Source of the DNA: Yuukianura sp. NJ FZ-2021
Lineage: Eukaryota
Assembly: GCA_046563655.1 (NCBI GenBank)
Contig: CM102287.1
Location: 62,001 to 126,000, forward strand
Direction: 5' to 3'
DNA length: 64,000 nt
Shown here piece by piece: positions 49,210 to 64,000 of the stretch. A program made the translations under genes and the position numbers. Below the pieces are notes generated by a model. That model saw only the letters and a list, made by a program, of their open reading frames with translations. It did no database searches and was not told the DNA's origin. Every line of letters begins with the position of its first letter. The stretch's first letter is position 1.

Positions 49210-50086
49210 TGAAACTTGACCCTTCTGGGTCCCTGGGACTCATATGACCTCAAAATGAACCAATGCCGCAGTTTTACTCTCTACCTTGCCTTCTACCTAG
49301 GTGGGGCCGGTCCCACCGGACCCACCTTAAATGACGCTTGAAAAATGAATGTCTAACTAACCGTCAAACCAATATAAGAAGGGAAGATTCCCTTACCTCT
49401 GTCAGCTACAGTCGGATCGGTGAAAGTGGCAGTGGCAGATGCGTGAGCTGTGGAGATGAAGCCGTGGAGATGCGTTTAGCTGTGAGACGTGGAGTTGAAG
49501 AATGACGAAAGATCTTCCCAAGAACAGTGTTTATTTGCAAAAGACTTAGTGTTTCGACCTTAGACCTTAAGTTGGAGAGAGAGAGTACTTGGCCAGAAGC
49601 TAATCTAGAAATGACTTAACGCTAACAAGTTGTTACTTATATTTATAACCTTACTCTTGACCCAGCTTGTCCTTCAACTGAGGGACGCTTAGCGACCTGA
49701 GTTCAAAGTTGGACGTTAATGACCAGGATCTATGATCCTGTTCTGTCATTAAAGTCCAAGATTGAACTAAGTTGTGGGACTATGCAAGTTGATTATCTGG
49801 GCACTTTGTATGAATGTCAACTTTTGATGAGTTGACATTCACATGTCTAACAAGTGTAAAACTTGTTAAACAAGCAACTTTGTTGCTTGCCCTCCCACTG
49901 ATCCGTCATGTCAAAGATCAATTGTCGTAAATCTTTGACATTTGATCCTCTTGAGAAAGAGGAAAAGAAGCTGAGTCTTTGCTTTCCTACTTGTTCTATT
50001 AAAACTAATGTTTATTTTACAATCGTCCGGTTTCGGCCCACCGGGAGATTTTAAAATCTCCGGGTGGCTCGAAATCCGGCGTTACA
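49210..50086 (-). repeat. 3' LTR (start exact, end approximate)
   Basis: Begins TGTAAC right after the PPT; TATAAATATAA at 49647-49637, TCATT initiator ~49614, AATAAA at 49535-49530. Candidate end ...GTTTCA at 49210 (alternative 49092). Confidence 0.7.
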
Positions 50087-50100
50087 TTATTCCCCAACTT
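50087..50100 (-). promoter_or_regulatory. Polypurine tract
   Basis: AAGTTGGGGAATAA abutting TGTAAC. Confidence 0.75.
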
Positions 50101-50307
50101 GACCTAAATCTACGTCCTCGTAGATTTTTAACCAGCTTATTTGAATAACAAACTTTACAACTCAACCTAAACATTGATTGTAGACCTGACCTATATCTTT
50201 GATGACATGAACTTGAAGCCTGAACTGGTAAAAGGAAATCATGATATTACCCTATTCAAGTATTTAAGTAAATCCATTTAGTAAGTATAGCGCACAAATG
50301 GAAAATT

Positions 50308-51735
50308 TTAAAAGAAGTTAAAAATGTCGTCAGGGTATGGCTTGTTCGGCTGACCATGGGGGTTTGTGTTGTTGGTGGCTGGCCAGCGGGGTTGATTGTC
50401 CGAGAGTCGTTGGACTGTTTCCTGGAGACCTTTGACCTGGGTTTGAAGTGTTTGGACCTGATGTTCCAGTGCAGAGATGCGAGCTCGGGAATCATCCTGG
50501 GTCCTCTGATAAGGGGTGACATGGTTCCGATTTCTTTCTCGGTATTGAGAATGTCCTGGCCAGCGATGTCCCTGGTGGTTACTGGGCTTCCTCGACATCA
50601 GTTCATTGTGTTCTGATTCTGCTTCCTTGCTGAGTTCCTCTAATGATGTCCATGTAATGATTGATTGGGCAGACAGATTGGCGTAAATGGGTTCCCCTGG
50701 CCGACGTGACAGATCGTGATCCAACATGCGGGTTACTGTTTCCATTATTTTTGCTTTGTCAAATTTGGCTCCGGGCGGTATTACAAGTTCATCCACCTTC
50801 CACTGAAACTGTTTACGTAATTTGTCATTGTTCTCGAGGCCACAATTTTCATAGAATTCCTCAAAGTTCCGCAGCGAGAGGTCGAACTGTTGTGCTAGGA
50901 AGTTGATGACTTCATAAAGCAATTCTTCATGTTGGGAACGGATAGTGATGTGTTGCCGGAATTTCGGAGTTGGAATTGGCAGTACCAACGTTTCGTTAGC
51001 GTCCTGAATCAGCTTTCGCAAAATTACTCCGCGAGTAGCCTGGAAGTTTGCTCGGATCTCGCTGGCAACTCCGTTCCATAACTGCATAATGGCAACAACG
51101 TGGTCCTGAAGATTCTTGACATGCGCATGTTCGGTGGGATGATAGCATGCGGAGTTCGGCAACTCGTAGTTGAATGTTTTTCGCAATCTTGTGGCAATGA
51201 ATTTTTGGCAAAGTCCCGAGAAGGTATCCTCAGTCGTGACGCCTGTACGAAAGAGTTTTGCTAAATCCAGAAAGCCAACGGGAAAAATATTCAAGTCTCT
51301 TCTCAGCATGATGGATTGTGATGCGCAGTCGTAGGCCACCTTTGGAATGGTTGGGCTCTCGAGCAATGTTCGAAGCACGAGGATGGATTTGTCGGTTAGA
51401 TGTCGCACGTTGAGAACAAAGCCGGTGATGCATGTTAGAATGAGTATAGTCACGGTTTCTCCCAAATACGTATTCGGATTTTCTCGGCAGCTCACAAAAA
51501 CGAGGTCCTGGGACATGGCTTGACGAATCAACCAAGCGGCTGCTCCATCGTCACTGACAGTGGTGTGTCTCCAGCCAGATTCTTTTTCCGGAGCTCGGAA
51601 CTGAAGTAGTCTCTGTGTCAGCTTTCCCTCATTTACTGCAGCAAGGCGTTCTGCATGGTCGCTCTTTTCGGGAAAATTTTCGGTGACATTCAAGGCTTGT
51701 CGTTTTTCGTAATAGATACTGCTGGATGTCGCCAT
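50308..51735 (-). CDS. DEDDy/RNase D-like 3'-5' exonuclease-fold protein, apparently inactive, with C-terminal coiled coil
   Basis: LRTLLESPTIPKVAYDC....MLRRDLNI..VGFLDLAKL...SGLCQKF....L.K matches the WRN/EXD/Mut-7/Egalitarian family; ExoI region reads VFVSCRE. Confidence 0.75.
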   Translation of the reverse strand: MATSSSIYYEKRQALNVTENFPEKSDHAERLAAVNEGKLTQRLLQFRAPEKESGWRHTTVSDDGAAAWLIRQAMSQDLVFVSCRENPNTYLGETVTILILTCITGFVLNVRHLTDKSILVLRTLLESPTIPKVAYDCASQSIMLRRDLNIFPVGFLDLAKLFRTGVTTEDTFSGLCQKFIATRLRKTFNYELPNSACYHPTEHAHVKNLQDHVVAIMQLWNGVASEIRANFQATRGVILRKLIQDANETLVLPIPTPKFRQHITIRSQHEELLYEVINFLAQQFDLSLRNFEEFYENCGLENNDKLRKQFQWKVDELVIPPGAKFDKAKIMETVTRMLDHDLSRRPGEPIYANLSAQSIITWTSLEELSKEAESEHNELMSRKPSNHQGHRWPGHSQYRERNRNHVTPYQRTQDDSRARISALEHQVQTLQTQVKGLQETVQRLSDNQPRWPATNNTNPHGQPNKPYPDDIFNFF

Positions 51736-62161: not shown

Positions 62162-62251
62162 ACCCTTTTGAAACGGGCGTAATACCTTAAGCAAATCATA
62201 TACATACAACTTTAAGTATAGATCCAAAACCAGAAAATAAATTCTTGGATT

Positions 62252-63629
62252 TTATTCATCACAATGGATAGAATTAAAGATAATTGTCACTGCAATCAGT
62301 GAGAAAATTATCATGACACCGAAAAATGCCCATGTAAGTGCTCCGATCTCTGCTACCTCAGCAGTCAGATCGCCTGAACTAGGTTCACAGTCAATTCCGA
62401 GAAACTTAGCTAGCTTATAGTATCTGTGGAGTCGGAAATTCCAATCGTATTCCATGATAAGACTCCGTTCTAAAGAATAAAAGCCCAGGTGATGCTCATT
62501 TATGCTTATAACAGGTGCATGCACCTCACTCAACTGTACAGGGTTATGAACTTTATCTTGAGGAAACAGTTTCCCCTGAGAGTGGTAGTAACCTAGCCAT
62601 GTGCCATTCACTTGTAAGTACAATGTACGTCTCTGCGTTATGACTCCAGTAATTGGAGAGGAAATTCCTAGTTCCCTTGTCAGCTGGGTACCCTTTGTCT
62701 AAGATGGTGTTGGTGAAGTATTTCCAGTATTTTCCGTTGGCGAAAATGTAGAGATGTCCATCGAATGGGAAGATCCTCTCGATTCGGATATTCTCAGGAA
62801 AATATTGAAAATATTGATGATTGATTACGAATCTAGGATAGCTAAGTTTCCCAGTTCTCTCTACTTGATAATGTCCGAATCCTTGGAACAAGAAGTAGAC
62901 GCTGCTTAGATGATAGACGTGCTCTATGAGTCTTGAACACACGGCTCGGTACAGCTGCTGTTGGACTTCCTTCTTTTCGGCATCGATTTGTAGGATCAAG
63001 TGAGCCTGCTCGTAGAGTCGCTCAAGAGCTTGTTTGTCTACTATGCTCAAGTTTAGTTGGGGGTCCCTTATCTTGTACCATGGGAACATGATGGAACTGT
63101 TCTCCGAAGTGTGGACAAGCCCCAGGGCATGACCTACTTCGTGTAACATTACGGTGTACAAGTTAATGCCAGAGGCATTGTGACCTGTAGCCCATTTTTC
63201 AGATGCATCTAAATGCACATCTCCTCCTATCCCTTCACTGGGGTAGAAGGCATGGCCTAGGATACCACCCTCAGCATCAAATGGTTTTGAATCGTTATGA
63301 TCGAACTTGGCAAACTTAATTTGGATCTCTGCAGTTGAGTCACCTGGCTTATTCATAAATGTGAAATTTGAAATCTCATTCCATCTCTGGAACGCTAGCT
63401 TAATATCAGTAAGGGCGTCGGCTTTTCGGATCTCCGAGGGTACGTCCTCTAAAGTCCATCCTAGTTGGAACGTTTTCCACATCCTCGGATTGAACACATG
63501 ACGCTTGGTCCTAAGACTATCAAGTGGGTCTTCCTCCCAGCATCGGATGGCTCCATCGTCCTCTCTCGTGAGCACGGATCCTTCAGCCATCAGCGTCAAT
63601 GTAATTAACAGCAAAACGTAGAGAGACAT
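62252..63629 (-). CDS. Intronless membrane-type matrix metalloproteinase (M10A); one frameshift near 62620
   Basis: Signal peptide, RTKR furin site, FD..GG.LGHAFYP..G.GGDVHLD..E.W, HEVGHALGLVH, Met-turn SIMFPWY, hemopexin-like repeats, C-terminal TM in the 62252-62623 frame. Confidence 0.92.
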
Positions 63630-64000
63630 CCTTCTCTGCTGTTTTCCTCTCCCTGGAAGGTTGCGTACGGAGTTAATACTCCTCCTTCATTTCATGAAGG
63701 TAGAGCCTACTTAATGCTAGACCCTAACACCCTGGCAAGATCTCCTGCAGTAGGTTCAGTCCCCTCCCAGTCCAAAATCTCGAGGTAAATTACAATAATG
63801 CTCCCTTCCTTGAGCATGGGGTGTATTTGTCAACTTGTGTGACATCATCAGTGAGATAGATGGCCTATCGGACTGGCTAGGTCCGGGCATGATGCTCCAT
63901 GGACTGGGATCTAACCTTGAGTTGACGACAACTCTATGAAAATTCTAAAGCCATTCTTCAGAGGGGCTGTGGTACCCCGCCCCTTCGCATCGCTAGTGTT

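Follow-up and report, generated by a model that had tools for sequence, protein, structure and literature searches.

A Ty3/gypsy-type endogenous retrovirus-like element in Yuukianura sp. with an F-type env, a conserved 3' gene cassette and probably a matrix metalloprotease gene

The window analyzed here, a stretch of 64,000 nt from Yuukianura sp. NJ FZ-2021 (GCA_046563655.1, CM102287.1, positions 62,001-126,000 of the forward strand), carries a series of genes that we consider, with a probability of roughly 70%, to be one minus-strand Ty3/gypsy endogenous retrovirus-like element, comprising a matrix metalloprotease (MMP)-like gene, an env and a 3' cassette of extra genes, and having a 5' LTR that lies past the window end. 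Nine ORF pieces, all co-oriented on the minus strand, run from 64000 down to 49092 in the order MMP-like gene, gag, pol, env, an 89-aa ORF, a 267-aa ORF, a dUTPase fusion, an exonuclease-like gene, polypurine tract and LTR. A sequence-only reading of the same DNA had proposed such a co-oriented series, with ORFs intact save for one frameshift, and both claims are borne out by the ORF map and the Pfam matches: the single frame break in the whole series falls in the MMP-like gene, where frames 62553-63686 and 62252-62698 overlap.

The retroviral core and its F-type env

The gag gene (60644-62161, minus strand) encodes 505 aa from its first Met, with a capsid-like domain followed, toward the C terminus, by a Cys-His knuckle, CWTCGENHRRVDC, read in the sequence. 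In Pfam it matches Retrotrans_gag (2.6e-9) and, just below the cut-off, Ty3_capsid (1.3e-6). The pol gene (56709-60722, minus strand; 1337 codons from stop to stop) lies in the -1 frame relative to gag and overlaps it by 79 bases. Its Pfam matches are RVT_1 (5.2e-21, residues 421-581), RT_RNaseH (1.8e-31, residues 671-773), Integrase_H2C2 (8.2e-16, residues 879-936) and rve (3.5e-8, residues 959-1050), with a weak SH3; the protease (DNGA) match, at residues 81-158, is weak and below the cut-off (0.023). Judged by sequence, this domain order, together with a gag bearing a capsid domain and knuckle, is of the Ty3/gypsy (Metaviridae) type. Replication would presumably be errantivirus-like, with Gag-Pol made by frameshifting. 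Of the 839 Ty3/gypsy-type relatives of pol, the best are 37-40% identical, and the pol of the metagenome relative L001 is 58% identical. In a tree of 121 pol sequences, the window pol groups with L001 (support 1.0), then with P0080 (0.99) and then with L005 and P0092 (0.87), in agreement with the likeness among the env proteins.

The env gene (54429-56585, minus strand) encodes 718 aa with a predicted signal peptide, an RQKR furin site (residues 110-113) and, after it, a conserved hydrophobic/CC stretch, as well as 16 Cys residues and two hydrophobic segments at the C-terminal end. It has four relatives, 28-52% identical, and in the alignment (A1) the R-x-K-R and Cys positions are invariant (R113, K115 and R116 in 5/5). 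By direct scan neither the window env nor P0001-P0004 had a Pfam match, and a direct hhalign comparison with a Baculo_F-bearing protein was not significant (2.7%). A1 matches the env of the related locus L005 (hhalign 99.8%, 7.9e-29 over 542 columns), and L005 env matches Baculo_F in Pfam (1.9e-9; 37.1 bits against a cut-off of 24.1). Because of these two profile matches the env can be classed as F-type, through the one intermediate of L005 env. Budding particles with a furin-cleaved F fusogen could then enter neighboring cells, and env and the putative genes downstream of it would require spliced or internally started mRNAs.

A conserved cassette between env and the LTR

Directly 3' of env is the 89-aa ORF (53770-54039, minus strand), zinc-ribbon-like with two invariant CxxC pairs. 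It occupies the same place in two relatives (tblastn; L003 6e-22, L001 4e-15), and its alignment (A4) has 24 invariant columns, including C5, C8, C43 and C46. It gave no Pfam match and no significant PDB match; a nucleic-acid-binding regulator would be a plausible role. The 267-aa ORF that follows (52827-53630, minus strand) is an orphan, with no Pfam family and no sure relative. It is absent from L003, where 40 bases separate the Zn ORF from the dUTPase, and its likeness to P0190, a cut ORF after the Zn ORF in L001, is weak (E 0.006 over 28 aa).

The next two genes resemble enzymes. The dUTPase-derived fusion (51883-52794, minus strand; 303 aa from Met) has an N-terminal dUTPase fold (Pfam dUTPase 1.3e-12 in ORF 51883-52836; human DUT 2.7e-18) and then a second domain, at about residues 185-268, that is conserved in L003 (4e-12). 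Trimeric dUTPases have five conserved motifs, including PRSG, GxIDxDYRG and the C-terminal RGxxGFGSTG. In the window protein the motifs are degenerate (GRITSIYRHT, EVMEGGTISG) and the C-terminal one is missing, so that it is a derivative and not likely an enzyme. The L003 motifs are complete (GRIAPRSGLA, GVIDQDFTGG, RGANGFGSTG), and L003 dUTPase matches metazoan cellular dUTPase at 2.2e-45. By these matches the gene derives from a metazoan-like cellular one. The ancestral enzyme would have kept uracil out of the cDNA, as a relative that still looks active may do, and in the window lineage it may have turned into a binding or signaling module. Active-looking in one relative and decayed in another, the dUTPase would illustrate how a captured enzyme becomes a non-catalytic module.

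The exonuclease-like gene (50308-51735, minus strand) encodes 475 aa. By sequence profile the protein has an RRP6/RNase D-type (DEDDy) fold, after which come a helical region and, near residues 420-460, a coiled coil. Taken alone, the window protein matches DNA_pol_A_exo1 below the Pfam cut-off (0.026; ORF 50308-51771) and RRP6 at 0.09. Only three relatives were found among 1.84 billion representatives; DNA_pol_A_exo1 is matched by P0067 (7e-8) and by the L003 protein (4.8e-5), and a profile of the four-member family searched against PDB gave RRP6 (1.5e-8) and Egalitarian (1.3e-5). DEDDy exonucleases have the catalytic residues Asp-Glu-Asp-Asp plus Tyr. In 4/4 members the ExoI Asp is replaced by Ser (S94) and the ExoII Asp by Gln (Q152), sites at which both residues are Asp in the true exonuclease P0069; ExoIII was not alignable. 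As aligned, the protein is a DEDDy fold without two of its catalytic acids. Both enzyme derivatives thus look like the pseudo-enzymes that had been suspected in the window copy.

The extra genes recur elsewhere in the same arrangement. On metagenome contigs, L001 has pol-env-Zn ORF and L003 has env-Zn ORF-dUTPase-second domain-exonuclease-like protein, both in the window order, with identities along the series of 58/52/40-45/31-34/27%. By this shared order the 3' cassette, between env and the LTR, is part of the element and not a mosaic. The earlier concern that the accessory ORFs might be missing elsewhere has been looked at in L001, which keeps the Zn ORF after env, and in L003, which keeps the Zn ORF, dUTPase and exonuclease-like gene in order, and the description of a Ty3/gypsy-type element with F-type env and conserved extra genes stands. 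The lost dUTPase motifs and exonuclease acids in the window copy, along with the orphan 267-aa ORF, could also suggest that the ORFs downstream of env are host remnants in decay, or nested insertions, and serve no function for the element. We consider this improbable, as L003 and L001, at 27-45% identity, retain open frames and gene order, the Cys pairs of the Zn ORF are invariant, and the invariant Ser and Gln swaps in 4/4 exonuclease-like proteins favor a retained non-catalytic role.

Downstream of the cassette, a polypurine tract read in the sequence, AAGTTGGGGAATAA (50087-50100, minus strand), adjoins the 3' LTR (49092-50086, minus strand), 995 bases of the form TGTAAC...GTTTCA that were delimited from the sequence and from contigs of other copies. 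These contigs diverge from the window at 50086, where the LTR begins with TGTAAC, and unlike continuations appear there as loose ends in 2 contigs of run X3 and 4 of X4. At the other side, flank contigs stop at 49091 in 4/4 runs and LTR-variant contigs align across both sides of 49210, so the LTR probably ends at 49092 (..GTTTCA); of the limits proposed earlier, 50086 and 49210, the first holds and the second should more likely be moved to 49092. The element probably sits within another repeated element, with the junction at 49091/49092. Read depth is raised over 49337-50003 in X1, X2 and X4. By eye, the LTR contains TATAAATA near 49640-49647 and AATAAA at 49530-49535; a 54-base palindrome lies at 50027-50079.

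The MMP-like gene upstream of gag

The membrane-type MMP-like gene (62252-63629, minus strand), defined by Pfam, PDB and hydropathy, is split over two frames (358 aa, counted from the first Met, and a further 141 aa) by a single break near 62677-62698. Every contig spanning this break in X1, X3 and X4 has a length unlike that of the window at this point, which makes the break a feature of the window copy or its assembly alone. Frame 62553-63686 matches Peptidase_M10 at 2e-44 over 157/159 profile positions (Pfam), and in the PDB match to MMP-20 (3.5e-31) HEVGHALGLVH, of the form HExxHxxGxxH, and the SIMFPWY Met-turn align, with the zinc site and active-site residues intact. There are also a signal peptide, an RTKR furin site and a strong C-terminal hydrophobic segment, a predicted membrane anchor. 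The pro-domain of matrixins (MEROPS M10A) has a cysteine switch, PRCGxPD; here the pro-region has just IRCWEED, a weak likeness to it, before the RTKR site. No PG_binding pro-domain was matched in Pfam, and the MMP matches elsewhere carry PF01471. Hemopexin is matched weakly, below the Pfam cut-off (0.006), and the second piece had no match in PDB. The best identity among 62 matches is 30-44%, in databases from which the host proteome is possibly missing. The lack of a near relative is as expected after long evolution within an element, and, if the host proteome is indeed missing, recent capture of a host MMP is also possible.

The location of the gene argues that it is likely part of the element. 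It lies on the same strand as gag, and the 91 bases from its stop codon to the gag start leave no room for an LTR in between. The X3 run, from another study and under another organism label, yielded a 7141-letter contig at depth 278 in which MMP, gag and pol are joined as in the window, with a like divergence throughout (1.7% differing letters in the MMP-gag part, 2.1% in the pol part). No loose end falls at the MMP-gag border among the loose ends listed (24/201). The region upstream of the MMP start (63630-64000, minus strand) could be element leader or foreign flank; position 63668 within it is covered by 3, 7, 1 and 2 contigs in X1-X4, and with several contigs per run this stretch too must be repeated.

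Alternatively, the MMP gene could be outside the element, with a 5'-truncated copy lying behind an intronless MMP gene (a host retrogene or the cargo of another repeat) by chance or rearrangement, and only env and the 3' cassette being real parts of it. The 5' LTR, primer-binding site and target-site duplication all fall outside the window, and the search of 63687-64000 for likeness to the 3' LTR gave none. The MMP stop codon is overlapped by an AATAAA, as would equally be expected at the end of a separate gene upstream. None of the five related loci has an MMP match; the place before gag is covered in one of them, the distant L005, in which about 650 bases precede gag, without an MMP. Finally, the X3 contig, the lone second-source contig joining MMP and gag, is self-closed (63394 joined to 56283) and lacks LTR, env body and cassette, which makes it a rearranged unit, maybe from one locus. 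Against this stand the shared strand and 91-base spacing, the uniform divergence of the joined contig, the coverage of the MMP and of the stretch upstream of it by several contigs in each run, and the border free of loose ends among those listed; an MMP outside the element is thus the less probable arrangement, though one to be taken seriously. If the gene is part of the element, a cellular MMP may have been captured, without introns, between the 5' LTR and gag.

Comparison with known systems and possible roles

No element with this gene set (gag, pol, F-type env, a cassette from cellular enzymes and probably an MMP) was found in the published literature searched, as the sequence-only reading had anticipated. 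Its further statement that errantiviruses have only gag-pol-env holds as the literature describes them, with the addition that env-carrying Ty3/gypsy elements are already known outside insects (Chary and Hayashi, eLife 2026, PMC13524379). As described in the available part of that paper, the "ancient errantiviruses" are like the window element in their gag-pol-env order, in an F-type env that has a signal peptide, a furin site, a fusion peptide and an anchor, in their LTRs and in being multi-copy; the window element differs in the four ORFs downstream of env and in the MMP lying upstream of gag. The available main text contains 0 mentions of dUTPase, metalloprotease, exonuclease or accessory genes, and its table lists some annelid elements with about 12 kb between LTR ends, which may hide unlisted ORFs. 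The bdelloid rotifer LTR retrotransposons Juno, Vesta and TelKA (Rodriguez, Kenefick, Arkhipova 2017, PMC5408684) share with the window element a DEDDy-type exonuclease ORF downstream of pol and a dUTPase; one of their lineages also has an F-like env. According to the available text, however, the dUTPase there forms part of pol, lying between protease and RT, and the DEDDy protein replaces env as ORF3, whereas the window element, in a comparison by description only, has env, a free-standing cellular-type dUTPase fusion, exonuclease-like protein, Zn ORF, orphan and MMP together.

The window element shows that env-carrying Ty3/gypsy elements, known across animals but described so far as gag-pol-env, can also have a conserved cassette of several genes and, probably, a matrix protease, all derived from cellular genes, offering a series from simple retrotransposon to complex retrovirus. 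The complex vertebrate retroviruses (lentiviruses, deltaretroviruses and spumaviruses) have several extra ORFs, small and large, near env and the 3' LTR, with a dUTPase in some. The window element differs from these in its Ty3/gypsy RT lineage and its env class, and its extra genes are unlike theirs.

Granuloviruses, DNA viruses of the baculovirus group, carry an F fusogen and a matrixin with a proposed role in breaching tissue barriers. A furin site and a predicted membrane anchor set the window MMP apart from the granulovirus MMP. A granulovirus source of the genes, at which the sequence-only reading had hinted, was rejected: the MMP is nearer cellular metazoan MMPs (1.1e-27) than granulovirus mp-nase (3.1e-16), and the L003 dUTPase matches metazoan cellular dUTPase (2e-45). 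The co-occurrence of F protein, MMP and dUTPase in baculoviruses, and the presence of mp-nase among the MMP matches, might also suggest a larger integrated DNA virus of which the whole stretch forms one part, or a composite element merely containing a Gypsy element. This is very improbable, given the cellular affinities of both proteins, a cassette followed by polypurine tract and an LTR with ends marked by other copies, the pol-env-cassette series carried by L001 and L003 on short contigs, and scans of viral contigs that gave no match.

We infer the functions of all the extra genes. One tentative proposal, which we hold to be possible though less than even, is a complex invertebrate retrovirus lineage that, on its particles or on the surface of infected cells, combines an F fusogen with its own furin-activated, membrane-anchored MMP opening basal laminae, and that has a re-purposed cellular cassette handling RNA or blunting small-RNA silencing. 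Sitting in the same membranes as the fusogen, the MMP could cut basal lamina or matrix and ease passage between tissues, for example from soma to germ line. If this reading were true, the element would become the first known case of a retroelement with a matrix protease gene, and if the MMP is in the unit, a single protein would suffice to test tissue barriers as a limit to the spread of retroelements.

The dead exonuclease, for its part, may bind RNA, either in handling of the element RNA or in interference with small-RNA silencing. It resembles the cellular proteins Egalitarian, EXD1 and Maelstrom in keeping a DEDD fold while having lost the catalytic acids; EXD1 and Maelstrom are named as inactive exonuclease-like RNA binders in the available text of PMC5408684. 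The likeness to Egalitarian is at the family level only (1.3e-5, against 1.5e-8 for RRP6).

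Gene order and the post-env cassette

The stop-to-stop frames on the minus strand form one co-oriented series from 64000 to 50300. This begins with an MMP, one gene across two frames (62553-63686 and 62252-62698; Pfam matrixin at 2e-44 in the first), which accounts for the single frameshift noted in the sequence-only reading. It continues with gag (60644-62251; Retrotrans_gag, 2.6e-9) and pol (56709-60722), which lies in the -1 frame, shares a 79-base overlap with gag and matches RT (5.2e-21), RNase H (1.8e-31), the integrase zinc domain (8.2e-16), the integrase core (3.5e-8) and, weakly, a protease (0.023). 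A 721-codon env frame (54429-56594), the 89-aa Zn ORF (53770-54039) and the 267-aa orphan ORF, in a 269-codon frame (52827-53636), follow, all three with no Pfam family. The last two genes are a dUTPase-derived fusion (51883-52836; dUTPase, 1.3e-12) and an exonuclease-like ORF (50308-51771), whose match to 3'-5' exonuclease (0.026) is sub-threshold. The parts list of the sequence-only reading was therefore right. These ORFs have no likeness to one another and no further copies elsewhere within the window; no Rfam family reached its gathering score in 48500-64000, and no tRNA genes were found in the window.

Four relatives of env were found in 5.8 billion clusters, at 52, 49, 38 and 28% identity. 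A scan of metagenome contigs with an alignment of env and these relatives yielded five loci from 202 pattern matches, and nine pieces of the window were compared with the five by tblastn. One locus, L001, carries pol and env at 58 and 52% identity and the Zn ORF at 40%. Another, L003, keeps the order of the window, with short spacers: env (58%), Zn ORF (45%), dUTPase (31%), second fusion domain (34%) and exonuclease-like ORF (27%). Env is also present in L002 and L004. L005 is a more distant element (env 25%, pol 31%), where 3-7617 holds pol and an F-type env in a single 1628-codon frame and, ~650 bases further on, gag and pol once more; it represents two tandem elements with one common LTR-sized spacer, without accessory ORFs. 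In a pol tree of 121 segments, comprising L001, L005 and 119 database rows (all of the 120 listed matches that span more than 550 residues), the window groups with L001 (support 1.0), then with the database relative P0080 (0.99), then with L005 and another database relative, P0092 (0.87). Because the order is kept in L001 and L003 and the pol tree groups the window with L001, sequence comparison indicates that the post-env cassette is inherited in this lineage and missing from the sister lineage, L005. For this part, the element is thus one unit and not a mosaic.

The 267-aa ORF was not found in L003. In L001, the truncated ORF that follows the Zn ORF shows only a weak resemblance to it (E 0.006, 28 residues). 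Against PDB sequences, the 267-aa ORF gave nothing significant (best 0.48). No relatives of env, gag, the MMP or the exonuclease-like family were detected in the viral contigs searched, nor any of env in the prokaryote genome contigs searched.

Env has no direct Pfam match, and its profile matched neither a Baculo_F-bearing polyprotein nor, significantly, any PDB sequence (best 0.072). In the five aligned env proteins, R-x-K-R is invariant and is followed by a G..CCG stretch; all have numerous Cys and a hydrophobic C-terminal end. The profile does match the env of L005 (99.8% probability, 7.9e-29, 542 columns), which is itself a Baculo_F member (Pfam 1.9e-9, above cut-off). Since the window env also carries a signal peptide, a furin site and hydrophobic anchors, it can be assigned to the F type, with the L005 env as the intermediate. 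According to PMC13524379, F-type env occurs in env-carrying Ty3/gypsy elements across many animal phyla.

In the cassette itself, an alignment of three Zn ORF sequences has 24 invariant columns, including two CxxC pairs; the best PDB match of its profile (0.027) is not significant, and the likeness to the thioredoxin CxxC reaches only 0.11. For the exonuclease-like ORF, which has a coiled coil near 420-460, a search of 1.84 billion representatives returned three relatives, and one of the three is a true RRP6/HRDC enzyme. Two members of the family match Pfam DNA_pol_A_exo1 (7e-8 and 4.8e-5), and a profile of four element-type proteins matches RRP6 (1.5e-8) and Egalitarian (1.3e-5). At what we take to be the ExoI and ExoII motifs, the Asp residues of the true enzyme are replaced by Ser and Gln in all four element-type proteins.

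The dUTPase of L003 matches metazoan cellular dUTPases over its full length (2.2e-45), with PRSG, GVIDQDF and RGANGFGSTG present. The window match is weaker (2.7e-18): GRITSIYRHT and EVMEGGTISG replace the L003-type motifs, and the fold stops short of the last motif. The C-terminal domain of the fusion is kept in L003 (4e-12), in a different frame. There, at 1677-2647, two frames that overlap encode the dUTPase and this conserved second domain; the window has a single ORF, which means either a frame break in L003 or a fusion in the window. In known retroelements the dUTPase is a pol domain (PMC5408684); here it is a cellular-type free gene behind env.

LTR ends and insertion site

On the minus strand, the last ORF is followed by AAGTTGGGGAATAA and then TGTAACG, that is, a polypurine tract and the start of the LTR at 50086. 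No second LTR copy was found within the window. To the region 44001-64000 we aligned contigs of four public runs, three from one sample and one (X3) from another study with another organism label. At 50086, contigs of other copies continue into unlike sequences (two in X3 and four in X4, agreement 0.57-0.68), as expected for an LTR end.

The sequence-only reading had placed the other LTR boundary at 49210. In all four runs, however, flank contigs stop at 49091; one in X3 continues for ~1600 letters that differ from the window. LTR variants align on either side of 49210, and a joint of 49234 to 49377 is present in all four runs. The most likely end of the LTR is therefore the GTTTCA at 49092, giving a length of 995 bases, and the stops and spanning variants disfavour the similar GTTTCA at 49211. 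By eye, the LTR contains TATAAATA and AATAAA.

The element is inserted in another repeated element, with ORFs at 44452-48139. Several contigs per run cover 44452-49091, and the minus-strand ORFs of this repeat (919 and 318 aa) have weak C2H2 and endonuclease VII matches. The loose-end letters of the flank contigs match nothing anywhere within the window, which places the far side of the insertion outside it. As a candidate PBS, a TGG-led stretch near 63900 was rejected, since the preceding bases do not match the LTR end.

The MMP and its probable membership in the element

The MMP is the most striking point of the element, to which it likely belongs. Read from the first Met, the protein carries a signal peptide, the sequence IRCWEED, a furin site (RTKR) and five NxS/T sites. 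The catalytic domain aligns to MMP-20 (3.5e-31) and retains both HEVGHALGLVH and the Met-turn; the hemopexin match is weak. The second frame ends in a strong hydrophobic anchor and had no significant match among PDB sequences. This build would be that of a furin-activated, membrane-type, intronless MMP. The best of its 62 matches, at 30-44% identity and 1.1e-27 or weaker, are to cellular MMPs from vertebrates, amphioxus and octopus, and a granulovirus mp-nase matches at 3.1e-16. A match in a Legionella feeleii record, from the prokaryote contigs, covers 57 residues, is hemopexin-like only and was dismissed as irrelevant.

The following observations make membership likely. The MMP stop lies 91 bases before the gag start, and an LTR would not fit between them. 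In addition, a 7141-letter contig of X3 (depth 278) joins 61442-63394 and 56283-61468 as in the window. It reaches from roughly codon 98 of the MMP through gag and pol into the first hundred codons of env, and departs from the window by 34 letters in the first segment (1.7%) and 108 in the second (2.1%). At the MMP frame break, every contig of X1, X3 and X4 differs in length from the window, and X2 offers no coverage; the break therefore belongs to the window copy alone or to its assembly. Counting against membership, no 5' LTR is seen within the window, and an AATAAA that overlaps the MMP stop would also suit a separate upstream gene. An MMP match is present in none of the five related loci, of which only L005 covers the region before gag. 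The X3 contig also closes on itself, its 63394 end meeting 56283, and contains neither the LTR nor the bulk of env nor the cassette, all of which have a depth of only 1.3-31 in X3; it is a rearranged fragment amplified about hundredfold over the env and cassette depth, as a tandem array or circle.

Possible mechanism, nearest known elements and other features

Alongside the observed anatomy, homologies, conserved order and loss of catalytic residues, a mode of replication can be proposed. This would be errantivirus-like, with the F env carrying passage between cells and the MMP aiding the crossing of matrix barriers. The dUTPase may at first have been retained for uracil control and re-used later, and the dead exonuclease could serve as an RNA binder. 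The genes might be expressed by splicing; GT..AG was found at none of the listed contig joints on the minus strand, so there is no sign of spliced copies. A joint of 49874 to 63669 was set aside, being 21 letters in a single contig.

The literature searched yielded no LTR element that carries an MMP or the full gene set described here. The nearest are those of PMC13524379, whose main text lacks "dUTPase", "metalloprote-", "exonuclease" and "accessory", and the rotifer elements of PMC5408684. The element table of PMC13524379 includes annelid F-type elements with ~12 kb between LTR ends, and these may conceal similar cassettes.

Internally deleted copies were also seen, with 57002 joined to 61103 through 26 filler letters (depth 149 in X2 and 2.8 in X3, the other study). 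In X2, 54316 is joined to 57448. Loose ends are concentrated at 56965 and 57002.

Elsewhere in the window, 1-10705 is a satellite array of a ~508-base unit in at least 21 copies ~98% alike, hence the flat composition over the first 10 kb. Long ORFs without a Pfam family occupy 11043-23655, the last of them (963 aa) weakly matching a protein-primed DNA polymerase B (7.3e-5); the stretch may be a virus-like insert, Polinton/Maverick-like or of another kind. Tandem repeats occur at 23901-24608 (111-base unit, adjoining a 100-N gap at 24509-24608) and 28618-29377 (98-base unit). A 672-aa ORF at 25797-27815 matches a Mutator-like transposase (3e-70) and a YqaJ-type recombinase domain (1.8e-12). The sole clear piece of a host gene seen is an exon-like ORF at 32803-33369, matching the end of the eIF3c N-terminal domain (1.5e-48).
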